Below are positions 4,663 through 19,266 of a stretch of DNA of 64,000 nucleotides, piece after piece. A program made the translations under genes and the position numbers. Under the pieces are notes generated by a model. That model saw only the letters and a program-made list of their open reading frames with translations, ran no database searches and was not told where the DNA came from. The stretch is from Candidatus Bathyarchaeota archaeon. GTDB lineage: Archaea; Thermoproteota; Bathyarchaeia; Bathyarchaeales; Bathycorpusculaceae. The stretch spans positions 992,001 through 1,056,000 of the forward strand of contig OY970280.1 in NCBI GenBank assembly GCA_963715865.1, read 5' to 3'. How positions within the stretch are numbered: the stretch's first letter is position 1; the number at the start of each line of letters is the position of its first letter.

Positions 4663-4750
4663 TGGCGCCGGGAATGGGATTCGAACCCATGCGGACCAGA
4701 AGGTCCACGGGCTCTCAAGGCCCGCGCGTTAACCACTCTGCCATCCCGGC
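4663..4750 (-). tRNA. tRNA-Ser(TGA), CCA encoded
   Basis: Reverse complement GCCGGGATGGCAGAGTGG...GGGCCTTGAGAGCCC...long variable arm...GGGTTCGAATCCC...CCCGGCGCCA. Confidence 0.95.
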
Positions 4751-4828: not shown

Positions 4829-5236
4829 ATGCATGGGCGTTTCATGGCAAAAACTCAAGAAGTGTCTATGAGTCAGGAGTTACTGGATTCAATTTTTGAG
4901 GGTGCAAAACGACTTTACCCGAGGGAGACGATTTTGCTTCTTAGGGGTAAAAAGGCTAAAGATGCCCTTCGTATAGTTGACCTTGTGATTCCGCCGTTGG
5001 CGACTTATGGGCATGGGTTTGCTAATTACCCGCTTCATTTGTTGCCCATGGATTTCTCTCTGGTAGGCACCGTGCATTCGCATCCGTCAGGTAACAAAAC
5101 GCCTTCGGATGTGGATTTTAATCATTTCTTTGGACGAATCCTCATGATTGTAGGCTACCCTTATGCGAGCCAGCAGGATGTTGCTGTATATAATTCGCAT
5201 GGGGAAAAATTACCATTGCTGGTAACTAAGGAGTAA
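4829..5236 (+). CDS. JAMM/MPN (Mov34) metalloprotease; its last 12 nt are the attachment core of the element
   Basis: E...VHSHPSG...PSDVD JAMM motif; true start may be the second Met. Confidence 0.9.
   Translation: MHGRFMAKTQEVSMSQELLDSIFEGAKRLYPRETILLLRGKKAKDALRIVDLVIPPLATYGHGFANYPLHLLPMDFSLVGTVHSHPSGNKTPSDVDFNHFFGRILMIVGYPYASQQDVAVYNSHGEKLPLLVTKE
5225..5236 (+). repeat. attL core, 12-bp direct repeat
   Basis: ACTAAGGAGTAA = Thr-Lys-Glu-stop of the JAMM gene. Confidence 0.85.
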
Positions 5237-5305
5237 GCCTATTTTAAACGCGGTTATCTAAACCTTTTTAAGCGACGGAGCCATATCAGTCTATTGGCGA
5301 GATAA

Positions 5306-6367
5306 ATGTTAAATCAGCAAGTCGAAAACTGGTTAAGCGAATGCAGAACCGCAAACACAGAACGACAATATCGAATAAGAATAACAAATTTTTTAAATTG
5401 GTATAATGGCACGGTTGAACAGTTCTTAGCCTTAACCCCGGCAGAGAAACGTAACGCTATTTTGAGGTTTCAAAACGCGCCTATACACAAATCCAAAAAC
5501 ACCGCTGGCTCTCATGTTGTCGCTATTCTATCCTTCTTGCGATCCGTTGATATGCCACTGGATTTAAGGGGAAAAAAACTTCGCTATCAAATGGATATTT
5601 CAAGCCACACCTTCACAAACGGCGACTTGCAAAAAATGTTTGAGGTAGCCGACATAAAAGGCAAGGCACTTTTAGCTTTAGCGACTTCGCTGGGCTGGGA
5701 GGTCAGCGCGGTTCTCGGCCTCAAACGTGCCTATGTGGAATCTTTAATAGCGAAGGCAAAAAGCGAAAACCAACAGTTCTATTATTTCCTTTCACAGCGG
5801 GAAAAGACTGGAGCGCCACGGTTAGGCGTCTTAAACCCGTTAGCGATTGAATGGCTCTCTAAATGGTTTATCGAAAGTGACCAATACCCAAAACGCAACC
5901 GCATAAAGAACCCTAAAAGAGACTATGGAAACAGCGACATATTCGACGTTAATGAAGCATCCGCAAACAAGATAGTACAGCGATTAGCAAGGAGAGCGCA
6001 TATAGTCACCACGGGCAGAGTGCGTTTTCACAAGATAAGAGGCTGGGTTATGAGCAATCTTAGCCGCGCAGGATTCAACGAGTTTCAGGTTAAGTTTTGT
6101 GTTGGTAAGGCTATTCAAGCAAGCGACATGACTTATCTAAATACTTTACAAGAGCAAATAGCAGAGCGTTACCCAGCAGCCTATAACGACTATTTAAGTT
6201 TACAAAGCACCGTTCCAGCAAAAGCCTTAGTTAAAATGAGCAAAGAAACCGAGGCTATCAAAGCAGATAACGCTGAGTTAAAGGCCAAGATTGCGAAGAT
6301 TGAAAATGACATGAAAGAGTTGCTTCTTAAAGTGGTCGCACAGGAACCAAAGCTTCCTGACGAATAA
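5306..6367 (+). CDS. Tyrosine recombinase/integrase
   Basis: N-terminal SAM-like region, REKTG, RFHKIR (HxxR), VGK, DMTYL (Tyr); C-terminal coiled coil. Confidence 0.9.
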   Translation: MLNQQVENWLSECRTANTERQYRIRITNFLNWYNGTVEQFLALTPAEKRNAILRFQNAPIHKSKNTAGSHVVAILSFLRSVDMPLDLRGKKLRYQMDISSHTFTNGDLQKMFEVADIKGKALLALATSLGWEVSAVLGLKRAYVESLIAKAKSENQQFYYFLSQREKTGAPRLGVLNPLAIEWLSKWFIESDQYPKRNRIKNPKRDYGNSDIFDVNEASANKIVQRLARRAHIVTTGRVRFHKIRGWVMSNLSRAGFNEFQVKFCVGKAIQASDMTYLNTLQEQIAERYPAAYNDYLSLQSTVPAKALVKMSKETEAIKADNAELKAKIAKIENDMKELLLKVVAQEPKLPDE

Positions 6368-6403
6368 GAGAAAGATTAAAAAAAGAAAAAAGCTATTGTT
6401 GCA

Positions 6404-7156
6404 CTAACATTTTTTCTGTTGGTCACAGTGTTTGCATACTTCAGCGATGTCGAGGTCTCCCAACTTCAAAATGTGTGGCCCTCGGTCTATTTTTGGCTGT
6501 TGTATTTGGTAACAGGATGGATATTCTTCTTCTTTCTCAATTTGATCGAGTGCTGATTTTGCTTCGTTTAGTTGTAAACCCATTTTTCCAGCCAACCAGT
6601 CGAGATAGTCCGCGATCTCATTCATCGAATATCCTTTCTCTTTTAAGTAAATTCCAGTGAGCCTTAATCCTCTATTGAAGCCGTCTTCAAATGTGCATGG
6701 GGAAAAGAGAGCTACGCATTTTTTCGGAGATTCTCTATGAACCCAGAAAAGCTCAGGTATCCACTTTGGTTGCTCTTCTATCTTTTTGCCACTAAGTTCT
6801 TCTACAGTTAATATTTTTGTTAAGGAGTCTCTTTCTTCCTGCGACATGAGTTTTTCTGCCATCCGTTGTACTTGCCTTCTGGCATCAGAACGTTGAACCA
6901 CTAAACCAAACTTCAATGTTGGATGGTTCTCCTTCAACAAATGAAAATGGAATAACTTTTCTTCATATCGAGCCTTGAGTTCGACTTCCCAAAGTATCTT
7001 TTCTTCGTTTTTCTCCCAACAAACATCTACTATAACTTTAGCCCTCTTAGGAATCTCAAAAGAAGGGTTTCCAATAACATAACCCTTTTCAATTCCTTGC
7101 TTCTTAAGCAAATCTGCTAACGTAGTATGCAAAGACACTATTTTCTTTTCTGGCAT
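6404..7156 (-). CDS. PD-(D/E)xK nuclease-like domain fused to a primase C-terminal-like helical domain
   Basis: VIVDVCW...ILWEVELK at N-terminus; RLTGIYLKEKGYS...YPSC...CKHC at C-terminus. Confidence 0.45.
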   Translation of the reverse strand: MPEKKIVSLHTTLADLLKKQGIEKGYVIGNPSFEIPKRAKVIVDVCWEKNEEKILWEVELKARYEEKLFHFHLLKENHPTLKFGLVVQRSDARRQVQRMAEKLMSQEERDSLTKILTVEELSGKKIEEQPKWIPELFWVHRESPKKCVALFSPCTFEDGFNRGLRLTGIYLKEKGYSMNEIADYLDWLAGKMGLQLNEAKSALDQIEKEEEYPSCYQIQQPKIDRGPHILKLGDLDIAEVCKHCDQQKKC

Positions 7157-7168
7157 CTATTCACCTCC

Positions 7169-7696
7169 CTAAGAGCGCGCTGGCATTTTTCGAATGTAGT
7201 ATCTTGCCAGATCCGTTGTTTTTTCAAGTGGTTCTATGCCATGGCACATCCTGTCTAACATTTTTCGAAGCCTGCTTATCCCCATTTTTGAGATTTTAAT
7301 GGGAAGGCAGTGGTAGTCATATTTTACTATTATGCCATCCACTGAGTCTATCAGTTCCCTATTCTTTTCAATGTTGTCTCGCTTTTGTTTGTAACTCGTA
7401 AACCATTCATGTATTTTTTGATTTGAGATTTTATCGATGCACACATTGCCGACCTTAGACGTCTTTCCGCTACTATCGGCAACTACATAAATATCTTTGA
7501 TTCTTTCGTGACCACATACTTGACAATTAAGAAATACTTCTGAACGATAATGGTCAACGAGTCGGTAACTTTCACCTTCATACTGGAATTCGCCAACGGC
7601 CTTTATGTATTCTGGAATACTTGCATCCAATTCGCTCAAAACTTCGTCAGTTTTTGATATAATGTTCAATCGTTTCTTCAAACCTGTTTTACTCAT
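7169..7696 (-). CDS. Zn-finger protein of virus/plasmid type
   Basis: CQVCGH...KVGNVCI motif. Confidence 0.55.
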   Translation of the reverse strand: MSKTGLKKRLNIISKTDEVLSELDASIPEYIKAVGEFQYEGESYRLVDHYRSEVFLNCQVCGHERIKDIYVVADSSGKTSKVGNVCIDKISNQKIHEWFTSYKQKRDNIEKNRELIDSVDGIIVKYDYHCLPIKISKMGISRLRKMLDRMCHGIEPLEKTTDLARYYIRKMPARS

Positions 7697-9758
7697 TTTT
7701 CGAAGATTCCTCCTCTTCCATCAACTCAGCCAACGTCTTTTTGCGATTCTCTGCGTTAACATCATCAGACGAAATTAGTGCATCTACAGCCTTTTGCTCG
7801 TTAGACGCGTTTTCGGAGTTATTTTCTGGTTCTAACGCTGATTCTTCCTTAGAAACTATTACCACCAAGGGGTCGCTTTGCACCCTATCATTTTTATTAT
7901 TTTCTATTGAAGGATTAGATAGGGTTAGATTAGATTGTATAGATATATTATTTTCGCCAACTTTATTTTTACTATCAGGTGGTAATAGTTTAGAAGAGAC
8001 TTCACTGTTAAATTCAGAGTGCGCGTCCATAATCATTTTATCAAATTCTTCTTCAGTTATCGGTGTTTCAGTTTTATCAATGAAATTAATTTTTGATAGG
8101 GCGTAAGTGACACCCCTGGTGGTAATTGTTTCTTTCCATGTTTTGAAGTCCTTTATCAATTTCGCCTTTAAATCAGGGTTAATTGGCAAATTGGCTCTAA
8201 GTGCACTAATTTCAGTTTGAATCTCCGAATTTGACGCATTTTTTAACGGGTAATATGTTAATTCTCGACTGTCAGATTGTTCGTCTTCGCGTATGTCAAC
8301 CCAGCCTAAATCGCATAGTCTTTCTAAATATCGTCTTGCTGTTTTTCTTGACGGCGCTTTGGTTGTTGGTGTCTTTTCGCCTTCATAATTCATGGTAGGA
8401 TTGTTTTTGTCGTAGATGTGATTTACAATTGTCTTTAAGGTTGCGCCGTTAACGTGGTGTTCAACGTATTCATGGTAAAACGTTAATGTGCGCTTATCCG
8501 TGTTTGTCTGTGTGGTTTCGTAAATGAACTTGAAGTGTTTTTCTGCGTTTATGAAGTCTTGAACTGTAGCTACAAAGAATTTTTCGCCTTCTATGGTGAA
8601 AATAGGACGCTGGAATAGTGACAGGATCGGTTTTGCAGATAGGAGTTGTTGAAAATGTTCGAAGTCTCGCATGTCTCTTACTTCTAATCCGCCTATTAAC
8701 TCGTCGCAGTTGGGGAAGGGATTAATGAATTTTAGGTCATACTTTTTGATTGTATCGCGTATATTTCGAATCAAGGCTTTAAACAATATTTTGTCTTGGG
8801 ATGGTTTGGATTCCCAGGGGTAAGATCGTTTAGTCGCGATTGTTTTTTTGCCAGCTCGGATTTTAGCTTCATTGGTGTCTGGAGTGTCTGAAATTACTCT
8901 GGTTGCAAATTCCGAATAGTAATATTCGTCGATGCTACAGAAAATGAAGGCTGGTGCACCTTCAAGAACTACAACATGAACGTGGCCGTGCTCATCGACA
9001 AATTTATGTGTAATTCGGGGGCCGTCATGCGACATAGTGCTTTTTAACATCGCTAAGGTTTCTTTTGGTACAGTTTCTAAGAGAATGTAGATTTTGCCAG
9101 TGAATTTTATTAGGTCGAATGCTGCTTTAACTTTTTTGTCCCATTTAGGTTTTTCAATTTTGTAAACGTCTAATGCGTCTTGGTATTCTTCTTTCCCATC
9201 ATAATTTTTGGGTTTTGGCGCGTGCGGTGCATCATCCATGTTTAATGGTTCCTCTTCGCCGTTCTCATTGATTGTCATAAGTTCGCCCTGTTCATGAGTA
9301 ATAACTTTAGGGCTTTGCGAAGCGACCGTTATTATGTCTTCTTCCGGGAAATACGCGAAGACTGCTGTGGTATCATAGGTTTTTCCGCTTCCGCTTTCGG
9401 TGCTCTTGTGGCTAACTGAGAAGGGATCAACATAGGCGCTTAGCCCAGCCGCTTTATTGTCCTCGATAACCGCGTCATCAAACTTAACTGTTCTATGAAT
9501 ATCTGCATTAAATCGTTCTTCAATTTTTGGGTCATAAGCTAATTGTTCCAGCGAGCTTTTCAGTTCCAGTGGTACATGAAAGCTTTCAAGGCATTGCGTG
9601 TTGAGTAGGTTTTGCATGATTTCTTTTCCTTTAGCGCGGCATTCAGGGCAAAGAAGCTTGCCTGTTGGTGTTTCGCGCGTGACATCTAAACTTGATATGC
9701 CGCAGGCTTCGCATGTCTGCTCGATTTTTCGGAATCGTAAAAATTTAGGGAATTTCAT
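7689..9758 (-). CDS. Putative replicative helicase (MCM-like AAA+) with N-terminal Zn finger and C-terminal wHTH
   Basis: CEAC/CPEC; Walker A-like TESGSGKT; EFATR Arg-finger-like motif; SRKTARRYLERLCDLGWV wHTH. Confidence 0.65.
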   Translation of the reverse strand: MKFPKFLRFRKIEQTCEACGISSLDVTRETPTGKLLCPECRAKGKEIMQNLLNTQCLESFHVPLELKSSLEQLAYDPKIEERFNADIHRTVKFDDAVIEDNKAAGLSAYVDPFSVSHKSTESGSGKTYDTTAVFAYFPEEDIITVASQSPKVITHEQGELMTINENGEEEPLNMDDAPHAPKPKNYDGKEEYQDALDVYKIEKPKWDKKVKAAFDLIKFTGKIYILLETVPKETLAMLKSTMSHDGPRITHKFVDEHGHVHVVVLEGAPAFIFCSIDEYYYSEFATRVISDTPDTNEAKIRAGKKTIATKRSYPWESKPSQDKILFKALIRNIRDTIKKYDLKFINPFPNCDELIGGLEVRDMRDFEHFQQLLSAKPILSLFQRPIFTIEGEKFFVATVQDFINAEKHFKFIYETTQTNTDKRTLTFYHEYVEHHVNGATLKTIVNHIYDKNNPTMNYEGEKTPTTKAPSRKTARRYLERLCDLGWVDIREDEQSDSRELTYYPLKNASNSEIQTEISALRANLPINPDLKAKLIKDFKTWKETITTRGVTYALSKINFIDKTETPITEEEFDKMIMDAHSEFNSEVSSKLLPPDSKNKVGENNISIQSNLTLSNPSIENNKNDRVQSDPLVVIVSKEESALEPENNSENASNEQKAVDALISSDDVNAENRKKTLAELMEEEESSKNE

Positions 9759-9868
9759 TGTGGAATCACTTCAAGCGCTTTTAACCGCGCTTCAATTTTG
9801 TCGAAAACCAGGTTCATTTCACGAATAAGGTCACGGATTGTAAATTCTTCACTTTTTGGGTTCATCAT
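9755..9868 (-). CDS. Small coiled-coil protein, 37 aa (not in ORF track)
   Basis: MMNPKSEEFTIRDLIREMNLVFDKIEARLKALEVIPQ; stop overlaps helicase start (ATGA). Confidence 0.5.
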   Translation of the reverse strand: MMNPKSEEFTIRDLIREMNLVFDKIEARLKALEVIPQ

Positions 9869-10202
9869 GCAAATCAACTTTTTTCATTTTTTCCCTCCAA
9901 GCTCCATCTTCCAGCTTCGTTTTTTGGTTTGCATGTTCGTCGTAACCGAAAGAGCGTTTGCATCGACCATATTTATAGTTTTCCAACTTTTTCTAATTTC
10001 TAATTTTATTTCTACCGTTTATTTTCCCCAATTTTAAAAAAACTAAAAGGGCAACCTTAGAGCCTTAGTCGGCAGTCTTACGAAATCCAAAATCCAGCGC
10101 TTTTTGGGCAAAGTCAATGAAATTCCAAAGATCGCAAGACCGCTATCGACGGGGTTTGAGTTGCATAGGCTTTTCTGGCGCTCCTGAGGTGAGTCAAGGT
10201 TA

Positions 10203-10365
10203 TCCAGACGCTGAAACGCGGAAATTAGACGAATAGATGAAACCGCGCTCAGTGCTCGCGCGAACTCTGAGACGCTGGAACAGCGCATTCGGAGCCTAAG
10301 CGCGCTTAGAGCGCTACGTGTGGTAAATAAGCCTGAGTGTTCCGAAGAGGCCTACTTACCACACG
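10203..10365 (-). ncRNA. Putative structured RNA or cruciform region
   Basis: Three-way junction, 14-bp palindrome and 18-bp stem with two G-U pairs on the minus strand. Confidence 0.4.
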
Positions 10366-10439
10366 CTGACTGGACGGTTGGAGAATTCATGGCAAGCCAA
10401 CCGGCGCACAAGTGGAGGAGAATCAAGGCTTGTGCTATG

Positions 10440-10604
10440 TCAGTTTAATGTCTGTAATGGTTTGCGTGGAGGGCTTCTTTGAAAGGGCAGTGAATTGTGG
10501 TTCTTGACGGTGCATGGTAAAGCGCTGTATTGTCGCACGTTTCGGAAAAACTGATACCAGTTTGTTGTGGTCTTTCTGGCTCTTCCGCGTTGTCGGTCTG
10601 TCAT
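10440..10604 (-). CDS. Small basic protein, 54 aa (not in ORF track)
   Basis: ATG 1 nt after the stop of 10606-11304; MTDRQRGRARKTT... Confidence 0.35.
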   Translation of the reverse strand: MTDRQRGRARKTTTNWYQFFRNVRQYSALPCTVKNHNSLPFQRSPPRKPLQTLN

Positions 10605-10605
10605 G

Positions 10606-11304
10606 CTATCGCCTGCTCTTTGCGTGATAAATGGGGCCTAGCGTAGTGGTTCCGTCTGGTTGTGGTGTTGGAAGTCCGCCGCCTATTTCAAAGTCGTCAG
10701 AGTTCACGATTTTCAGGTTGCCACGCGAGTCTGTTGTCAGCAGTGCTTTGTCGAGCGGTACATCGGGACTCAATGCGCCGACGAGGTGCGTTCCTTTGGT
10801 TAAGTTAGGAACGACTCCGCTTAGGTGTGGCGCGATTTTCTCCAGTTCTGCCTCAATCGCGTTGAACGCGGCAAGCCTTTTATCGAACTTTGCCATTTTC
10901 ATCTCTAAACATTCTCTGAGTGCGCGCTGTTCACCTAATAATTGCGCAAGCCCCAAAGCTTCAACCGCGACAACGTTGGTTCTACCTCTTAGATGGAGGT
11001 CGAGTTTTTCCATCAGATCGCATTCTATACTTAACGCGGCAGTGACTAACTTTGAGGTTTCAATGTTCGCTTTTAGCTCTTCCGTAAATTGTGTCATAGT
11101 AGCTTTCCACCATTTCCCGACGGTAATTTCGCTATCTAAATTGGCGAATTGCTTTGCTGCACTGGGAGTATTGGATGTTATGACTTGATGAGTCGGGAAG
11201 TCTCGCTGAAGCATTTCATAGGCCTTTTCCAATATAGCGTAAGCGTTCCGCACGTCTGCGTCTGCGTCAAACATTTTCAAGTTATTAAAAGTTTCAAGTT
11301 TCAT
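10606..11304 (-). CDS. Hypothetical alpha-helical/coiled-coil protein
   Basis: 232 aa, GAGGTG ribosome-binding site, in the leftward operon. Confidence 0.7.
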   Translation of the reverse strand: MKLETFNNLKMFDADADVRNAYAILEKAYEMLQRDFPTHQVITSNTPSAAKQFANLDSEITVGKWWKATMTQFTEELKANIETSKLVTAALSIECDLMEKLDLHLRGRTNVVAVEALGLAQLLGEQRALRECLEMKMAKFDKRLAAFNAIEAELEKIAPHLSGVVPNLTKGTHLVGALSPDVPLDKALLTTDSRGNLKIVNSDDFEIGGGLPTPQPDGTTTLGPIYHAKSRR

Positions 11305-11319
11305 GTTTTTTCACCTCTA

Positions 11320-11706
11320 TTAAAGCCATATCGTATTTTTTTCTTGTACCGTTAAAACTTTTAGTCGCCAATCTGAGCATGGAGCGCCGTTATGAATAAA
11401 AGCTGGCGAACCAAGTTTGCAGCGCTCGCGCTTTGTATCATTCATGAGACAGGTAAATTCTACTTGATCGTAAGGCGCGTACATTTTAATGCGCCAGTCG
11501 TCTGGGTTAGCCATTACCGCGCTTTGCGACAATTCGACACGGTGAATGTGATCGCATGAACGGCAGCATCCGGGCATTTGGCACTTTTCGCATGGCGGTG
11601 AACAGGCGGGTTTAGGCAATTCTGCAACTTCGGATTCTGAAGGTTTCTTAGGTTGATTAGTTTGTTCTTGCATAATTTTTTTCTTCCTACGAAATGGATT
11701 TTTCAT
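11320..11706 (-). CDS. Cys-rich hypothetical protein
   Basis: CSPPCEKCQMPGCCRSCDH plus three further Cys. Confidence 0.6.
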   Translation of the reverse strand: MKNPFRRKKKIMQEQTNQPKKPSESEVAELPKPACSPPCEKCQMPGCCRSCDHIHRVELSQSAVMANPDDWRIKMYAPYDQVEFTCLMNDTKRERCKLGSPAFIHNGAPCSDWRLKVLTVQEKNTIWL

Positions 11707-11847
11707 TTACTTTCAACTCTCGGGTTTCGTTCATTCCAAGCTGTTCTGGCTGACCGAAACATTCCATTATGACTTTTTCAAACGCGCGGATGCGCTTGGT
11801 GTGGCTGGAGATATTGCATCTTGTTTTCTCTTTTTTAGAAACTTTGC

Positions 11848-12159
11848 TCATTTTTCGTTCTCCTCTGCTTCTGGATACTTTGGATATTTGTTTATTGTTT
11901 GGGCAATCCGCAAAACCACGACCACGACTCCGTGTTTAATAGCGCAATCAAAAAGTGACATTGCCAAAACGGAGTCAGAAAGACCTATGACGCTTTCAGT
12001 TAATGCGAAGTGTTTAATTGGAAAACCGAGCAGTTTTTTGGCGTCGCGGTAGAATGCCTGCCTTCCTTTCCCATTAGCCGCAAAATCGTAATCCACAATG
12101 TAATACTCTGTGTGTGCGCCTAATTCCTGAATTTTTCGCATAAAAATGACCTTACTCAT
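11848..12159 (-). CDS. Cas2/VapD-like ferredoxin-fold protein
   Basis: YYIVDYDF...RQAFYRDAKKLLG resembles the Cas2 YxVxYDI...R pattern. Confidence 0.45.
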   Translation of the reverse strand: MSKVIFMRKIQELGAHTEYYIVDYDFAANGKGRQAFYRDAKKLLGFPIKHFALTESVIGLSDSVLAMSLFDCAIKHGVVVVVLRIAQTINKYPKYPEAEENEK

Positions 12160-12184
12160 TTTCTTTCACATTTCACTTTTTCAT

Positions 12185-12406
12185 TTATGTGATTAAAGGA
12201 TTTTTTACGCTTGGAACAAGTTGTTTAAGATCGGAGAAAGCTATTTTGTAGAGAATCTGATGATGGCATTCGGGGCATTCAAAAGTCATTATAATTAAGG
12301 GGTCTTTGCCGACGTTTATGACTTCAGCTTTAACGGTTTTCAGCAGAACCTCAGATTTTTTATGTACACAGAAGAAATGTTGCTGATTCATCAATGCCTG
12401 CGCCAT
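12185..12406 (-). CDS. Small Zn-ribbon protein
   Basis: CVH ... CPEC metal-binding pairs. Confidence 0.5.
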   Translation of the reverse strand: MAQALMNQQHFFCVHKKSEVLLKTVKAEVINVGKDPLIIMTFECPECHHQILYKIAFSDLKQLVPSVKNPLIT

Positions 12407-12437
12407 TAACTTCGCCTCCGTTTTAATTCACTCATTC

Positions 12438-14165
12438 TTATTTGCCTCCGCGATAAAGTTTCTGTTGCGCAAACGCTTGCGATAAAGCCGTGACTAAAGG
12501 AGTTTCAAGACCGTTTATGATTGCTTGTGTTAAAGCATTTGTGAAATCCTGCAAACTTGCGTTAACTCCTAAACTTGCAATGCTAATTGTGGGGTTAACA
12601 GTGATTTGGAAAGTGTTTTCGTTTGTTACGGAGCCACCGCCACTTTCAGCCGTTGTTGCTAATGGAGTTACTGTGCCGACGTTGCTTAATGCTTCGCCAA
12701 GATTTTCGTTTAACGGCATAACAGCTTCTGGGCCAGATTCGCCAACCATTGCCAATGTTGGTTGAGTCACTACAGCGCCCCCTGCTAAGCCAATAGCGCT
12801 AAAAGCACCACCGATAGCTGATCCAACACCACCAAGCGCACTTCCAATGGTTCCGAAAAAGCCAGCGATTGGCTTCAACACTGTATTATAAACTGTTTCC
12901 AACGCGTCAAAAACAGGTTTAATCAATATATTGTATGCCGAACTGAGACCACTTGAAAGAGTGTTCCACGCAGCAAGCAATGTATCAACAATGAATGTTC
13001 CAAGCGGCGCTAAAACGTCGTTCCAAACCAATGTAAGCGCATCTTTAACGTCGTTTACGGCTGTTTGAATAAGGCCCCAAGCAACTTCGAAGGGTTTAAG
13101 GTACAGGTTAACCCAAACTTCTCCGATAAATTTGCCCAATGGAACAAGCACGTTATTCCATAAGAATGTTAATGCGCCTTCAATATCATCCAACGCAGTT
13201 TTTAATGCTCCTCCTAACACCGAACCAATCTCATTTATTGCATCGCGGAAAGGCGCGCAGTTCTGGTATGCTTCATAGATTCCAACTGCTAAGAGAGCGA
13301 TGCCAGTGATTACAAGAATGATGGGGTTTGCGGCGAGAAAATCCATTGCTCCCGAAATACCCTCAATCCCGCCAGACACGGCTGAACTGATGCCTGGAAA
13401 AGCTGTCATAAGTGTGGACATACCTGCAAATACGCTGGTAACAGCGGGGATGACGCTTACGCCAGTCATCATGAAGTCGTTGTTTAAGTTGCGTTGACCT
13501 TCAGTGACTCGTTCATTCGCAACCGTTAACGCGTCCTGCGCTGCACTAAGCTTACTCGCCGCTAAGGTTGCCTGCGGACTATCTGCTCCATACTTCGCGA
13601 CGGCTGTATTGTACGCATTTTGCGCCGACGTAACCGCATTAGTATCTCTCTCAACTGTAACATGAGCCTTGTCCAGGCTAACTTGCGCGTTTTCGATGTT
13701 GCTTACGCCCATGACAAGCATCGCGCCTGAAGATGCTAATTGCCCAACCGCTCCTACCTGTCGCAAAGTGCTGGCAGACGCCGCGTCAGTGGCTGAAACT
13801 GTTTGTCCCTGAGCGTTTACAGTCGTGGTTGCACTGGTTAAATTCGCGTTTGCAACATTTTCCGTCGCGGTTTGTGCTCCACTTAAGCTGCTGTTCACGT
13901 TCACCATTGAACTTTCGACATTTTGACTCACTGTGGCTGCAGTACTGCTAATCTGGTTTAGACTTTGATCAATATTTTCACTTGCTGTAGAAAATGCATT
14001 TTCGACGGAGGAAGCGGCATTTTCCATGCCACTTTCAAAAGTGGTCATTGGGGTACTGACATCTTCGATGCTGCCGCTTAATCCGCTTAATGCACTTTCC
14101 ATTCCACTAATCGCGCTGCTAACCTGATCTGATAATGTGAATTGGAATTGAACTGGAAAACTCAA
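12438..14165 (-). CDS. Tail tape-measure protein
   Basis: Ser/Ala-rich N-terminus, coiled coil, NPIILVITGIALL...PFRD motif, periodic W/F repeats, C-terminal LAGGAVVTQPTLAMVGESGPEAVMPL motif. Confidence 0.85.
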   Translation of the reverse strand: MSFPVQFQFTLSDQVSSAISGMESALSGLSGSIEDVSTPMTTFESGMENAASSVENAFSTASENIDQSLNQISSTAATVSQNVESSMVNVNSSLSGAQTATENVANANLTSATTTVNAQGQTVSATDAASASTLRQVGAVGQLASSGAMLVMGVSNIENAQVSLDKAHVTVERDTNAVTSAQNAYNTAVAKYGADSPQATLAASKLSAAQDALTVANERVTEGQRNLNNDFMMTGVSVIPAVTSVFAGMSTLMTAFPGISSAVSGGIEGISGAMDFLAANPIILVITGIALLAVGIYEAYQNCAPFRDAINEIGSVLGGALKTALDDIEGALTFLWNNVLVPLGKFIGEVWVNLYLKPFEVAWGLIQTAVNDVKDALTLVWNDVLAPLGTFIVDTLLAAWNTLSSGLSSAYNILIKPVFDALETVYNTVLKPIAGFFGTIGSALGGVGSAIGGAFSAIGLAGGAVVTQPTLAMVGESGPEAVMPLNENLGEALSNVGTVTPLATTAESGGGSVTNENTFQITVNPTISIASLGVNASLQDFTNALTQAIINGLETPLVTALSQAFAQQKLYRGGK

Positions 14166-14167
14166 TT

Positions 14168-14341
14168 TTAAGCCTCCGATGCTTTTTCAATAATTAGCCG
14201 TTCATTGTCGATGCGGACTAAAATTTTAGTGGGTAGTTTAGGAAACGGAAAACTTGAATCTGACATGACACAAGATGGAATGTACACGATCCCAGTTTTC
14301 GCGCATGGATGCGCTATTAATCTTCCGACGCTTTCACGCAT
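14168..14341 (-). CDS. AbrB/SpoVT-like small protein, 57 aa (not in ORF track)
   Basis: KTGIVYIPS...DSSFPF...VRIDNERLIIEK swapped-hairpin pattern; ends 2 nt before the tape-measure start. Confidence 0.6.
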   Translation of the reverse strand: MRESVGRLIAHPCAKTGIVYIPSCVMSDSSFPFPKLPTKILVRIDNERLIIEKASEA

Positions 14342-14803
14342 TTTTCGGTCTCTCTTTTTTCTTGCCTATGTTCCAGAGACCGTTCCACGCTATGCGCGAA
14401 AGCGACCTATTTCCAAGTTTTCCTTAGAGAGCATTGGAGCTTTAAGTCACTGAGTGCTTGTCGGGTCTTACACGCGAGCTGGGGTGATACTCCTTCCGTC
14501 TCGCCGAAGCTCAGGATACAGTTCCTTCCACTACGCAGAGCCCTGTGACTCCAGTATGGACTATGGACGGTGCCGCACGTCCTCGGCTTACGGTTGCTCC
14601 GTTGCTCCCATTACTAAGGCGAAAGTGAAGTAAAGCAAATTTGGCTTCATGCTTAGCTTCGCATTATTAGGCTTGATTTCAATGTTTGTTTGGCTATTCC
14701 GCCTTAGCAGATTTAGTATTGTTGCGCCTGCTTAAAAACTTTACGCATTTTTAGCATAAATAATATTAAAAGTAACTTTTTTATCAATAAATTGAATAGA
14801 ATA

Positions 14804-14875
14804 AAATACTAACATATAAGTTAGTATTTGTTTGAAATATTAACATATAAGTTAGTATTTGTGATATGTTAAGAT
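14804..14875. repeat. Tandem palindromic 26-bp repeats with 31-bp period plus an inverted half site
   Basis: AAATA(C/T)TAAC-ATATAA-GTTAGTATTT at 14804 and 14835; ATATGTTAAGATTT at 14864. Confidence 0.85.
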
Positions 14876-15114
14876 TTGTCAGTTAACTAACCACGTTTTT
14901 AAAAGGCCGCGCTAATCGCAAGAATCACAAGATAAATTCTCGCCACAGATTGACTTATCCCATCTATTTCTTAATAGGATCGCTGAGAATCGCTTTAAAC
15001 ACTGGATTGACTGAGAAAAAGTGAGTTGTTACCCTACCCTAAACAATGCAGAAAAGCGACTCAGCAACATAGGCGTTTGCTAAAATACAAAAAAAAGAAG
15101 GGTTATTAGACTTT

Positions 15115-15243
15115 TCATTTGTCTTGTTGACGAAGCTCTTGTAGAAGAAGAGAAGAAACGTAATCCGTGATTGATAATCCATTACGTTTTGCTCTATCTT
15201 CTATCGCGGCAAACGCTTCTTTACTAACTCTTAATTTCTTCAT
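15115..15243 (-). CDS. RHH/CopG-like DNA-binding protein, 42 aa (not in ORF track)
   Basis: MKKLRVSKEAFAAIEDRAKRNGLSITDYVSSLL; GAGGTG ribosome-binding site. Confidence 0.65.
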   Translation of the reverse strand: MKKLRVSKEAFAAIEDRAKRNGLSITDYVSSLLLQELRQQDK

Positions 15244-15381
15244 TCAATCACCTCTTTTTTTCCACGCTATTATCTGCGGGCAGTCACTTTCACACCCTGA
15301 GTAATAACATTCTGGTGTTTCGCTATCTTGATCAATTTCATGAGCAGTTTTATTTTTAGGTTTCTTGGTTGTTTTTTGCAT
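15244..15381 (-). CDS. Small protein, 45 aa, three Cys (not in ORF track)
   Basis: Start overlaps upstream stop and its stop abuts the downstream start. Confidence 0.45.
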   Translation of the reverse strand: MQKTTKKPKNKTAHEIDQDSETPECYYSGCESDCPQIIAWKKRGD

Positions 15382-15566
15382 TAAGGCACTGCTCCGTTTT
15401 TGATTGGATGGGTTTTCATGTACTCGGTTAAGGCCTGCACTGTTTCCTCTGAAACTTTGTAGGTTGAGCCCGTTTTTCTATGAACGTAAAGTGTCCATTC
15501 GAGCCAGAACTTGTCGTCTATGTTTAAGCTTGTTCTTTTCTTTGTCATAGATTGCATATTTACCAC
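15381..15566 (-). CDS. RHH DNA-binding protein
   Basis: KRTSLNIDDKFW...VSEETVQALTEYM. Confidence 0.7.
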   Translation of the reverse strand: MVNMQSMTKKRTSLNIDDKFWLEWTLYVHRKTGSTYKVSEETVQALTEYMKTHPIKNGAVP

Positions 15567-15647
15567 GTTACTTTACTTAATGCTTTCGTCCCTATTAAAC
15601 ATTACCACATTAACACATTAACACAATGTTTATTAATTACCACGTTA
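15560..15647. promoter_or_regulatory. Divergent promoter with three TTACCAC(G/A)TTA direct repeats
   Basis: Copies at 15560, 15602 and 15637 between divergent genes. Confidence 0.6.
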
Positions 15648-15859
15648 TTACGTTATTATTTGAGGAAAGCGAAATGTGGAATCAAACAAACTTGGATGGA
15701 AAAATTTTAGAACTCCCTACGGAGCTCCAATCAGTTTGCTGCGAAATTTGTTATAACGCAACCGAGGAAAAATGCGATTGTAAGTGCCACGGCGCCTTTC
15801 ACGGTCTCGGCAACTTGAACAAGAAAACAGAAACTGAGAAAATGCGCGAGGGATTTTAA
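15626..15859 (+). CDS. Small Cys/His metal-binding protein
   Basis: CCEIC...CDCKCHGAFHG; real start probably MWNQ. Confidence 0.55.
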   Translation: MFINYHVITLLFEESEMWNQTNLDGKILELPTELQSVCCEICYNATEEKCDCKCHGAFHGLGNLNKKTETEKMREGF

Positions 15860-15860
15860 G

Positions 15861-16196
15861 ATGGAAGTCGTAATGAACCGCACTAAGGAACATTGGCTTT
15901 TCACTTGGACGCCTACTGGCACCGTTAAAACTTACTTTGTCAGCGAAGGACACATTAACGTGCAATGCCTACCCGGCGAGAAAGAGTTAACCAACCAACT
16001 GTTCAACGCATTGTACGCTGGAGTGCCCGTTCACGTTCACGGCGCCTATGACAAGGAAACTCACATCCTCACGATTAAGCCTGCCGAACGCGATGAAAAT
16101 GCGCCAGTCCCCACGCAAACGCCGCAACAGCGCGACCGCGCCACAGACGACTATTTCAAGTGGCAAGAAGAACACCTCAAAAACCTATGCGTGTAA
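15861..16196 (+). CDS. Hypothetical protein
   Basis: 111 aa, directly follows the previous gene. Confidence 0.55.
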   Translation: MEVVMNRTKEHWLFTWTPTGTVKTYFVSEGHINVQCLPGEKELTNQLFNALYAGVPVHVHGAYDKETHILTIKPAERDENAPVPTQTPQQRDRATDDYFKWQEEHLKNLCV

Positions 16197-16232
16197 TCCG
16201 CAATATTCAAGAAGTTAGGAGTCGTATAGGAG

Positions 16233-16484
16233 GTGAAAAGTGTGAGTGAAAAATTTGAGTATGAACAAGTAACTATCAAAGTGCCTAAGCAAATAATGGC
16301 TTTTCTGCGCTTCCAAGCTGGACAGCACGATGTCCAGGTAACGGAAGAAATAGAAGGCTGTGTGCTTGACGATGTGCGAGGTCTAATGGAAGGTATGGAG
16401 GGAGAAGAATTGATTGGTTTTCTCGGGATGGACACTATTTTCTATGAGCTATTAGACGACCAAAACTATAAGCCAAAAGGCTAA
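16233..16484 (+). CDS. RHH-like protein
   Basis: YEQVTIKVPKQIMAFLR; GGAGGTGA ribosome-binding site. Confidence 0.6.
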   Translation: MKSVSEKFEYEQVTIKVPKQIMAFLRFQAGQHDVQVTEEIEGCVLDDVRGLMEGMEGEELIGFLGMDTIFYELLDDQNYKPKG

Positions 16485-16602
16485 AAGCAACAGATTAAAC
16501 CTTCAATATCTCTTTTTTTTATTTTTCAAATATGCCTACCGGGAGGGGTCTTTTTTCCAGACAGACAAACTAAAAATCAATAACCGTCTTTTATTTAAGT
16601 TT

Positions 16603-16614
16603 ACTAAGGAGTAA
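16603..16614 (+). repeat. attR core, 12-bp direct repeat
   Basis: ACTAAGGAGTAA identical to 5225-5236. Confidence 0.85.
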
Positions 16615-16624
16615 CCGCTCTTCA

Positions 16625-16969
16625 CTAAGCGCATAGGGCTTTGTAGGCTTCGATAAATTCCATGGCAAATTTGTCAGCGTATTTCTCTGTGCCTCTATGC
16701 ATTTTATCCACCGCTTTGCTGCGCAGGTGATGATAAAACTCGTGTAGAATAACGAAGGGGTTCACCATCACGTCACTATTTAGCACTGAAATGGTTTCAT
16801 TTTTAGATGTATAACAACCGAACGCTTTCATCTTGTGCCCTTTTGGTAAACCAACTTTCAGTTTGGGAACATTCACTTTGTAATTTTTCGCCAGTAAAGT
16901 GAGCGCTTCTTCCGGTTTTCCATTGAGAATAAACCAGACCACTAGTGGTTTGAAGTTGTCCTGCGTCAT
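16625..16969 (-). CDS. Zincin-like HExxH protein, conserved archaeal hypothetical
   Basis: FVILHEFYHH motif. Confidence 0.75.
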   Translation of the reverse strand: MTQDNFKPLVVWFILNGKPEEALTLLAKNYKVNVPKLKVGLPKGHKMKAFGCYTSKNETISVLNSDVMVNPFVILHEFYHHLRSKAVDKMHRGTEKYADKFAMEFIEAYKALCA

Positions 16970-17039: not shown

Positions 17040-18290
17040 TTACTCGCCGTAAGTGCCTCTTCTAATCTTCTCAGCCAACAAATGGATGAACTCAATCGGC
17101 CAAACATCATCACAAACATCGTCCGTCAATATGTTGCGTTGATGATACATGGAAATTAAATCATTTTTTAGTAGAAGTATTAGAAGGAATTTGTGGCCAT
17201 AAGTTCTTTTGAACAGCGCATATTTGCGAGCTTGCCTTTTAGTCATTTCAAAGTGGGGTTCAAGGATTATTTTTCTTCCTTGAAGTGTCTTTTCTAATAT
17301 AAAATCTGGGGTGTAAATTTCGTTGTTTGGCAAAGGGAAGCTAATCGTTTCATAACCATATGGAATGTGCATCCTCAAAAGGGTGAGGGCGGTTTTTTTC
17401 TCCCATCCGCTCTTGTAGCGGCTCATTTTTTGGTAATAAGCTTGGGACTGCCCAGTTATTTTTTGCATGCGATCAAGAAAATCAAGTGCTGTTTTCAACG
17501 TGTAGCGGTTTAAGGTTTTTTGTTTAAGCCATCTGCCCAAGAGGAAAAAGGGAGAATCTACCTTCGCAGGGTCTTGTGGGAAAAGTCGTTTTGCAAAGTC
17601 AGTTATTTTTTGCCGTGCATCTGCTGCGGTGCGTTCGTCTCTCCACAGCGATGGCGAAGCTGAGTTTATTACACCCAAGCTTGCAGCAACATTAGCGTTT
17701 TCCTTGGTCAATGGAACGTAGAGGTCTTCTGGCAAAAGATGGTCGTAGATTTGCAGGTCAGGTAGAGGTCTCACCATCCACCGCATATAAATCCACGCCT
17801 TGTCTATGTGCGGTCCGCTAAGCGCTTTGATGTTTTGTGCAATGTCCTCGATGAAATCCTTAGGCTTACTAAATCTTTGGGCGTACTTTAGCAGGTTTTT
17901 TTCTTCATTAGTCTTCACAAATAAGTTAACAGACGCCAAGATTTCGGATGCCGCTTTTTTGTTTGGACCTAAATCGTAATAAAAATCGGATTTTACGATT
18001 TCTTCTTCGAAAATATGCGCTTTTTTTATTTCGAAAAGGCTGTTGCCAAAGGCTTCATGTAGATATGCTAGTAGCATTCGTGCGTTTTCAGGGTAACCTA
18101 CAACTGTATCATCAAGTATAGATGCAGCCAGTAGAAAGTAGTGCGCTATAGTTTTCCGCTCTTCATACTTTTCCGAGTACGGGTTAAAGAGCAACCGTGG
18201 ACTCATACGTCGGTCCCATTGGATGTCAACAACGTTGGAATTCTTGTTAATGAAGTCAACAAGTAAAGTTAGCACTTCATCGGTTGCCAT
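17040..18290 (-). CDS. DUF2400-like (HhH-GPD superfamily) domain fused to a T7 endonuclease I-like PD-(D/E)xK domain
   Basis: YMRWMVR...LYVPL...FPQDPAKVD; then YKSGWE...YGYE...YTPDF...ILEPH. Confidence 0.65.
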   Translation of the reverse strand: MATDEVLTLLVDFINKNSNVVDIQWDRRMSPRLLFNPYSEKYEERKTIAHYFLLAASILDDTVVGYPENARMLLAYLHEAFGNSLFEIKKAHIFEEEIVKSDFYYDLGPNKKAASEILASVNLFVKTNEEKNLLKYAQRFSKPKDFIEDIAQNIKALSGPHIDKAWIYMRWMVRPLPDLQIYDHLLPEDLYVPLTKENANVAASLGVINSASPSLWRDERTAADARQKITDFAKRLFPQDPAKVDSPFFLLGRWLKQKTLNRYTLKTALDFLDRMQKITGQSQAYYQKMSRYKSGWEKKTALTLLRMHIPYGYETISFPLPNNEIYTPDFILEKTLQGRKIILEPHFEMTKRQARKYALFKRTYGHKFLLILLLKNDLISMYHQRNILTDDVCDDVWPIEFIHLLAEKIRRGTYGE

Positions 18291-18491: not shown

Positions 18492-18569
18492 GGGCCGGTC
18501 GTCTAGCCTGGTTAGGACATCTGCTTGACGTGCAGAAGGTCGCCGGTCCGAATCCGGTCCGGCCCACCA
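18492..18569 (+). tRNA. tRNA-Val(GAC), CCA encoded
   Basis: GGGCCGG acceptor stem, anticodon arm TCTGC-TTGACGT-GCAGA, ends CCGGCCCACCA. Confidence 0.95.
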
Positions 18570-19227
18570 ACATTTCATCTTTTAGACAATTCTCAGGTCA
18601 AACGGTCATTTTCGTTCTTGACGCTTGCACAAAAAAAGCCAATAAGGCAAAATGAAGGCGTTTCAGGGTTTTCTTATCTTCACCAATGAGGTTTTAGGTA
18701 ATGAGAGCGCCGTATTTTGTTGTTAAAGTTTGTATCTTTCAAGATCGGATTGAGAACCGCATTTTGGGGTAACAAAATAGAAGATTTCTCCACAGTTGCT
18801 ACAGCGAAACTCTTGATTTTTGTTTTTCTCTACCGCTGGAGAACTACATTTAGGACAGCGTATTTCAACGTTCGGCGTTTTTTCTTCCTTCCAAGTTTAG
18901 CGTAAATTGTTTTGTTATTAAAGATTACGACAAATATGGGTTAGGTTAAAGGGCAAGGTTTTTGAGTGGCGTTGTTTTCTATTGCCTGCCAAGGTTGATG
19001 AATTTTGTCTAGAAAAGCAAAGAAAGCCGAGGGTCTAGAAAAGCACAAGAAATTGCAACGGGAAAAGGACCAGAAACGAAAAGAGAAAAAACAGGTTTCA
19101 CTCCCAGCAAAACACGCCAAAGGCAAAAAATAGTTCTTTTGCGTTAAACGAAGTTTGTCTACTCCGATGTAATCTACTTTTTCCGTTTGTTACCTATTTC
19201 TAAATTCTGAGTTTCAGTGGCCAAAGC

Positions 19228-19266
19228 GCAGAACGTCGCCGGTCCAGATCCGGCCCGGCTCACCAA
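19228..19266 (+). repeat. Degenerate copy of the tRNA-Val 3' half (att scar)
   Basis: 34 of 39 nt identical to 18532-18570. Confidence 0.8.

Follow-up and report, generated by a model that had tools for sequence, protein, structure and literature searches.

How did a segment of some 11 kb come to lie between two copies of a 12-bp sequence, the first of which forms the very end of an intact protein-coding gene, and is that segment still mobile? The locus belongs to a Bathyarchaeia archaeon and lies in a 64,000-nucleotide stretch of contig OY970280.1 (hereafter, the window), where the segment separates a gene for a JAMM/MPN protein from a convergent gene for a protein with an HExxH motif. Here, we present evidence, drawn from comparative genomics and structure prediction, that the segment is a site-specific integrative element in the Bathyarchaeia chromosome, moved by its own integrase of the tyrosine recombinase fold, a reading that we hold with high confidence. 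An earlier, sequence-only reading of the same DNA had proposed such an element, integrated in the 3' end of the JAMM gene and not in the nearby tRNA gene.

A 12-bp direct repeat at the end of a JAMM gene

The sequence ACTAAGGAGTAA occurs as an exact direct repeat at positions 5225-5236 and 16603-16614 of the window and nowhere else in the window or in the whole 2,354,843-bp genome; its chance expectation in the window is 0.01 matches, and none of 100 shuffled sequences reached two copies. The left copy encodes T-K-E-stop, that is, the final three codons and the stop codon of the JAMM open reading frame (ORF; 4829-5236). The repeat cannot be extended, the neighbouring bases being mismatched on either side. 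Start to start, the copies are 11,378 bp apart, with 11,366 bp of element between the two 12-bp cores, and the stop codon of the minus-strand HExxH ORF lies 10 bp from the right copy. All the coordinates that the sequence-only reading had given for the two 12-mers, the end of the JAMM gene, the 11,378-bp spacing and the 10-bp distance to the HExxH gene hold.

The JAMM protein ends in ...VTKE followed by the stop codon in occupied and empty genomes alike, so that the target frame is preserved and the host gene is left intact, as had been claimed. The tRNA-Ser(tga) gene, which the earlier reading had dismissed as the target, is 475 bp from the core and is syntenic with JAMM in relatives with empty and with occupied sites, which bears out that dismissal. 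The att core overlaps no tRNA gene, and no repeated tRNA fragment is present at the right end of the element.

Empty, occupied and relic sites in related genomes

The JAMM protein was searched in related genomes, and the region downstream of each match was inspected. The gene is present in 32 of the 41 related genomes. In approximately 20 genomes of the same genus, JAMM and HExxH are adjacent and convergent, 9-30 nt apart, and are followed by a gene for a DUF2400 protein, matching the right side of the window element, where this host flank (HExxH, 16625-16969, then DUF2400, 17040-18290) is conserved across the genus. Five empty sites (G018, G041, G084, G106 and G128) carry an identical ACTAAGGAGTAA at the JAMM stop codon, and those of G071 and G104 carry the 12-mer with one or two base differences. 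When the empty sites are aligned, the sequence left of the 12-mer corresponds to the left flank of attL and the sequence right of it to the right flank of attR; the direct repeats at the element ends coincide with the synteny breakpoints. The element is therefore precisely bounded at the JAMM 3' end, as the sequence-only reading had it, and the relatives that lack the cargo have JAMM and HExxH joined at the 12-mer, the arrangement which that reading had predicted for them. The site is empty in the closest relative, G041 (JAMM 96% and DUF2400 98% identical), so that the gain, or precise loss, of the element is recent. Distant JAMM loci without a neighbouring HExxH gene were considered as occupied sites and rejected, because no integrase lies beside JAMM and the synteny is merely different.

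The same 12-mer is occupied by another element in a second species, Candidatus Bathyarchaeia archaeon isolate SPRUCE 136 (G046, a SPRUCE peat metagenome-assembled genome). There, two copies of ACTAAGGAGTAA lie 10,626 bp apart at a JAMM gene that is 87% identical to that of the window, HExxH and DUF2400 resume after the second copy, and the element spans 10.6 kb (L051, G046:C7, 7000-17600). Its integrase is 85% identical to the window integrase and, apart from this enzyme, the two cargos have in common only a 738-amino-acid (aa) protein, 34% identical to the 689-aa protein of the window element. In a further genome, G062 (L069, G062:C17, reverse strand, ~1420-2370), a 0.9-kb insertion is found between the JAMM stop codon and HExxH. 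The two copies of a 22-nt repeat, which differ by one mismatch, lie on either side of it, and the repeat comprises an additional, diverged version of the JAMM 3' end; the insertion holds a frameshifted small ORF resembling a flavin protein and looks like the relic of a third integration event at the JAMM site. Given the window element, the G046 element and the G062 relic, the JAMM stop codon has served repeatedly as an attachment site in this genus. We thus have a conserved protein-gene attB which, across one uncultured archaeal genus, occurs naturally in empty, occupied and relic form.

A palindromic attP and a non-palindromic attB

To reconstruct attP, the sequence left of the attR core was joined through the 12-mer to the sequence right of the attL core. 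The result is an imperfect palindrome of ~56 bp centred on AAGG. Of its 35 half-positions, 20 pair in the window element, a score that 4 of 20,000 shuffles attained, and 25 pair in the G046 element, which none of 20,000 did. The empty attB sites, in contrast, have no dyad except a central ACT..AGT. The right half of the attP palindrome corresponds to the first ~26 nt of the element-side arm of attL, and its left half to the element-side arm of attR, close to the point (16579) at which the DNA similarity between the window and G046 elements resumes; between these two elements, conservation extends over ~24 nt on the left side of attP and over more than 45 nt on its right side. In both, the integrase gene starts 69 nt from the core.

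Integrases 71-76% identical to that of the window, found on metagenome contigs, have a similar right arm and a different sequence at the core position, and adjoin other genes: one such site is ~300 nt from a tRNA-Lys gene, and another is in the region upstream of a rubrerythrin gene. The tRNA-Lys gene lies ~300 nt from the predicted core in two close integrase homologues, and no tRNA gene was found within 1.5 kb of 28 homologous integrase loci in other genomes of the genus or elsewhere in this genome. It has been asked whether att sites in protein-coding genes have the dyad symmetry needed by tyrosine recombinases (PMC8371274); here, attP is clearly a dyad and attB is not. This contrast, together with the reuse of a JAMM target by several elements, appears to be new.

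An integrase with a variant active-site signature

The first gene of the element encodes P0001, for which an AlphaFold2 model built from 30 homologues reached a pLDDT of 79.4. In Foldseek searches, this model matched XerA, IntI, XerH, Cre, lambda Int and Tn1549 Int (probability 1.0, E from 4.5e-7), with YopR and SroF among the weaker fold matches. Sequence methods gave less: a weak NCBIfam XerA match over residues 15-289, only coiled-coil noise in searches of PDB sequences with P0001 alone or its profile, and a probability of 0.8% in an hhalign comparison with a single Xer-like sequence. Some homologues 45-60% identical to P0001 have precomputed PF00589 or PF02899 matches. More than 200 homologues were found, most of them unnamed or labelled Bathyarchaeota, and a profile search of 1.8 billion cluster representatives yielded 108 at an E-value cut-off of 1e-30 and 404 at one of 1e-10. 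From the best 150 matches of that search, 99 representatives of at least 280 aa were retained for a tally of active-site residues.

Residues K167, H242, R245 and Y277 are invariant in the 30 homologues and are retained in nearly all of the 99 representatives. The expected position of the first catalytic arginine (Arg-I) is occupied by an invariant SLGWE motif, and Glu132 aligns with the Arg of the GLRASDF motif that a sister clade of this genus carries there (hhalign, probability 99.9%). This column holds E, G, S, A, D, N or T in 88 of the 99 representatives, 86 of which have an arginine at position 165, separated from the catalytic Lys167 by one residue; conversely, Arg-I is kept in 11 representatives, and 10 of these are devoid of Arg165. 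In the Glu132 subclade, the usual acidic residue three positions later is lost as well. With the fold, the tyrosine, the HxxR motif and the lysine all kept and Arg-I absent, P0001 is a member of the fold with a variant active-site signature.

The characterised archaeal integrases all retain the first arginine (PMC8371274) and, at the corresponding position of Cre, His and Lys are the sole substitutions that leave any activity (PMC2943603). Given Glu there, catalysis by P0001 would need a compensating residue. We infer that Arg165 supplies the guanidinium that replaces the missing Arg-I in the predicted active site. Because the tallied sequences are relatives, the pairing of a missing Arg-I with Arg165 in this clade probably represents one evolutionary event rather than many; the retention of Arg165 across many diverged clusters does argue for function. 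This large, mostly Bathyarchaeia integrase clade (homologues P0350-P0498) with an apparently relocated first arginine appears to be new. If the relocation is real, it is a natural case of a catalytic residue moving within the tyrosine recombinase active site, and it would explain why standard profiles miss many such integrases, with the consequence that integrated elements are under-called in these genomes.

Taken together with the att sites, these features suggest the following route, in which the circular form and the position of the crossover are both conjectural. A free circular element would carry the ~56-bp palindromic attP, with a centre identical to the last three codons and stop codon of JAMM; the integrase of the element would bind the two inverted arms of attP, and strand exchange with the chromosomal attB would take place inside the 12-bp identity, yielding attL (5225-5236) and attR (16603-16614). 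The shared core would rebuild the end of the JAMM gene, and the host gene would thereby stay intact. On our interpretation, the element, or an ancestor of it, entered by such recombination between attP and attB at the JAMM stop codon through its own recombinase. The rest of the element comprises a putative replication module, consisting of an MCM-like P-loop protein and an AT-rich stretch with tandem dyads, as well as small putative regulators and one captured tail tape-measure gene.

Cargo of the element and links to tailed viruses

Table 1. Features of the JAMM-site element and its immediate surroundings, in window coordinates
Feature	Coordinates	Strand	Basis
tRNA-Ser(tga), host gene, not the integration target	4663..4750	-	ARAGORN and Rfam
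JAMM/MPN host gene, 135 aa	4829..5236	+	PF14464 Prok-JAB, E 2.8e-9
attL core ACTAAGGAGTAA	5225..5236	+	exact repeat, within JAMM 3' end
attL element-side arm (P' arm) and integrase upstream region	5237..5305	+	near-identical in G046 element
Integrase P0001, 353 aa, C-terminal coiled coil	5306..6367	+	tyrosine-recombinase fold; ORF intact
Two ORFs, 250 aa and 175 aa	6404..7696	-	weak PHROG match of unknown function only
Replication-type protein P0121, 689 aa	7689..9758	-	Cys4 finger, GSGKT P-loop ATPase, C-terminal winged-helix-like region
Small ORFs, 232, 128, 54, 103 and 73 aa, several Cys-rich	10606..12406	-	no significant family match
Tail tape-measure protein homologue, 575 aa, intact	12438..14165	-	PHROG tape-measure families, E 1e-13 to 1e-16
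57-aa ORF directly upstream of tape-measure gene	14168..14341	-	AbrB/SpoVT-like by eye
AT-rich non-coding stretch, GC 0.38	14342..15243		two tandem 28-nt palindromic repeats
Small ORFs, 61 aa (-) and 77, 111 and 83 aa (+)	15381..16484		tblastn
attR element-side arm (P arm), left half of attP palindrome	16573..16602	+	dyad test
attR core ACTAAGGAGTAA	16603..16614	+	exact repeat of attL core
HExxH host gene, 114 aa, ImmA/IrrE-like metalloprotease	16625..16969	-	phrog_87 metalloprotease, E 6e-7

The largest protein of the element, P0121, has 113 homologues, one of which is fused to a PrimPol domain (PF09250). Its AlphaFold2 model (pLDDT 73) gave MCM subunits as all of the top 30 or more Foldseek matches (E from 7e-7), with low TM-scores of only ~0.3, and its profile found nothing useful among PDB sequences; we read P0121 as a putative MCM-like replication protein of the element. 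The AT-rich stretch, with its tandem palindromic repeats at 14804-14831 and 14835-14862 (96% identity; repeat family D3), is a candidate origin or operator, and the 57-aa ORF, without a Pfam or PHROG match, is a putative regulator. No significant Pfam, NCBIfam or PADLOC match was obtained for the 250-aa and 175-aa ORFs, and no function could be assigned to the small cargo ORFs from PADLOC, NCBIfam or PHROGs; the 77-aa and 83-aa products recur in related elements (tblastn; L085, L099, L100, L090 and L092). Two of these contigs, L099 and L100, resemble the window element in two small ORFs, in the replication protein (72%) and in a portion of the tape-measure protein, and their integrase is canonical. 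A comparison of the element DNA with 120 genomes of the genus gave no evident match resembling a CRISPR spacer.

A 15-nt motif, TTTACTCATTTTTCG, and its variants were observed at 7688-7702, 11843-11857, 14333-14347 and 14740-14754. Three of the copies are at start codons of minus-strand genes of the element and the fourth is in the non-coding stretch; the motif may reflect a shared translation-start or promoter context.

The tape-measure gene, which is present in a single copy in this genome, is the sole recognizable virion gene of the element; no major capsid, portal or large terminase gene could be recognized. Its distant homologues belong to PF10145, PF06791 or PF20155, and homologues with 46-53% identity are found inside complete tailed proviruses that also encode the large terminase subunit (TerL) and a capsid protein. 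In those proviruses, the tape-measure gene adjoins chaperone-sized and distal-tail genes, whereas here it is isolated among small unrelated ORFs. When the proteins of two complete related proviruses were compared with the element by tblastn, the tape-measure gene was the only match. The G046 element, for its part, encodes a large terminase of 438 aa (PF03237; phrog_2, E 4e-34) and no recognizable capsid, portal or tape-measure protein.

Elsewhere in the same genome, a cluster resembling a tailed provirus was observed on the minus strand (G000:C1, ~1,689,000-1,715,000). The cluster (1.69-1.715 Mb) includes terminase, capsid and other homologues of Bathyarchaeia provirus genes, along with three large ORFs (613, 699 and 1210 aa). 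Other loci, near 0.59, 0.82, 0.98 and 1.67 Mb, hold capsid or terminase fragments that are degraded.

The lone tape-measure gene in the window element, the lone TerL in G046 and the resident provirus-like region, a possible helper, are circumstantial evidence for a satellite. On this proposal, which is tentative and to which we give a low probability, the JAMM-site elements are satellites of tailed Bathyarchaeia viruses: small integrative replicons that each captured one morphogenesis gene, that use or interfere with a helper, and that are moved by the integrase clade with the migrated Arg-I. It is speculative to read a satellite-like lifestyle from lone morphogenesis genes; were it correct, these would be the first known satellites of archaeal tailed viruses. 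In any case, the lone tape-measure and terminase genes of the sibling elements provide a lead to archaeal virus satellites.

Outside the element, the DUF2400 protein gave a weak C-terminal match to phage endonuclease I. The 3' half of a tRNA-Val(gac) gene (18532-18570) is repeated 696 bp downstream, at 19228-19266, with 87% identity, and this repeat could be a leftover att site of an older element that targeted a tRNA gene. An Rfam scan of the window returned only two tRNAs. A scan for sigma-70 promoters and terminators around attL returned nothing, such a scan being ill-suited to archaea.

Alternative explanations and mobility

Several observations weigh against an element that is moved by its own integrase. 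The 12-bp core is short. The XerA match of P0001 falls far under the curated cut-off, the protein has no Pfam match, PF00589 included, at an E-value of 0.01 or below, and Glu takes the place of the canonical Arg-I. No excisionase was recognized in the element, and viral and metagenome contigs yielded neither an attP junction nor a free circular copy: a 25-nt pattern of core plus arm matched nothing in IMG/VR and, among genome contigs, only that of G046, and a 38-nt degenerate attP pattern matched, in JGI metagenomes, only two attL copies of a G046-type element, which does not make the circular form absent. The Glu residue and the missing junction would also fit a fossil that was integrated once by site-specific recombination and is now immobile, its integrase either dead or converted to a DNA-binding regulator like YopR or SroF. 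These two recombinase-fold repressors are indeed among the weaker fold matches, and the composition of the element is indistinguishable from that of the host (GC 42.1% versus 42.8%; tetranucleotide distance at the 85th percentile of genome windows), for which reason composition was rejected as a marker of foreign origin. We nevertheless consider a fossil rather unlikely, given that the two cores do not differ and the integrase ORF is uninterrupted; that the tyrosine, histidine, arginine and lysine of the active site do not vary among the 30 homologues, with Arg165 almost always present where Arg-I is missing; that the empty site of the closest relative makes the gain or precise loss recent; and that a sister integrase with 85% identity brings different cargo into the same site. 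As to the element itself, we judge present-day activity and inactivity about equally probable.

The cargo raises another possibility, that of a tailed provirus that lost its capsid, portal and terminase genes through internal deletions and retained the tape-measure gene. The homology of that gene to those of complete Bathyarchaeia tailed proviruses, the presence of a 71%-identical integrase at the edge of a tailed provirus with an HK97-gp10-like gene, and the other degraded virus-gene clusters in this genome are compatible with such decay. Yet the tape-measure ORF is intact and flanked by small unrelated ORFs in place of chaperone and distal-tail genes, the genes of the element, one for a replication protein of its own among them, are compactly arranged without gaps, and the related small elements (G046, L099/L100) are likewise 10-15 kb in size with one morphogenesis gene each, all of which makes decay improbable. 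Still less probable is a target-site duplication made by a transposase-like enzyme, with the arms as terminal inverted repeats, as in casposons. The integrated half-sites of attP do read as imperfect terminal inverted repeats beside a 12-bp direct repeat, and casposons too target the 3' ends of genes (PMC6563490). However, the main ORFs of the element that were scanned gave no Cas1 or transposase match, which renders this explanation very unlikely, the only recombinase being the tyrosine recombinase homologue encoded 69 nt from the core; furthermore, exactly the same 12 bp are used by two different elements, and the G062 repeat, being longer and imperfect, is what one would expect of an element that brings in its own version of the gene end. 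Finally, the brevity of the repeat and the tRNA-Ser gene 475 bp away might suggest a chance repeat in native DNA or integration at the tRNA gene, a view that we regard as practically untenable against a chance expectation of 0.01, synteny breakpoints that fall on the 12-mer in ~20 relatives, and the joint presence of tRNA-Ser and JAMM in empty and occupied genomes. A site-specific integrative element thus remains the preferred reading.

Comparison with known systems

The sequence-only reading had called the target unusual. It is uncommon, and it is not new, since archaeal elements at the 3' ends of protein-coding genes have been described before: among 68 integrated elements of thaumarchaea, 14 are in the 3'-distal part of such genes, and their att sites can be only 13 bp long (PMC6563490), and archaeal protein-gene integration has also been reviewed (PMC8371274). 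The mode of integration described here is accordingly a well-documented additional case of a known class. The element resembles the thaumarchaeal NitEve-E2 type (Krupovic et al. 2019, PMC6563490) in having a tyrosine recombinase gene at its edge and a short att core over the stop codon of a conserved host gene (13 bp there, 12 bp here), in that the gene end is rebuilt by the element, and in validation against an empty site in a sister species. It differs in its Bathyarchaeia host, its JAMM/MPN target, a core that is reused by at least two unrelated cargos and a relic, and an integrase clade without the canonical first arginine.

With XerA-dif and Cre-loxP, the system has in common the recombinase fold (best matches XerA 5hxy/4a8e, IntI 2a3v and XerH 5jjv) and an attP composed of two inverted half-sites around a short centre; unlike in those systems, attB shares only the central 12 bp with attP. 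The signature of P0001, Glu132...Arg165-x-Lys167...H242xxR245...K268...Y277, contrasts with the R...K...HxxR...H/W...Y of the Xer/Cre type, from which P0001 also differs by an added C-terminal coiled coil of ~50 aa. Small size (~11 kb), an integrase, a replication protein of their own and very few virion-related genes are features of the bacterial phage satellites P4, PICI and cf-PICI and of the archaeal satellites pSSVx/pSSVi, and a tailed provirus is resident in the genome that carries the window element; to these satellites the window element bears a resemblance only, and a tape-measure gene on its own is not known as a satellite module. The SSV1-type 'suicidal' integrases are, like P0001, archaeal integrases of viruses or plasmids within the tyrosine recombinase superfamily. 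In SSV-type elements, attP is inside the int gene, which is split on integration into a tRNA gene (PMC8371274), whereas the element described here has an unsplit int gene, with att 69 nt upstream, and targets a protein-coding gene.

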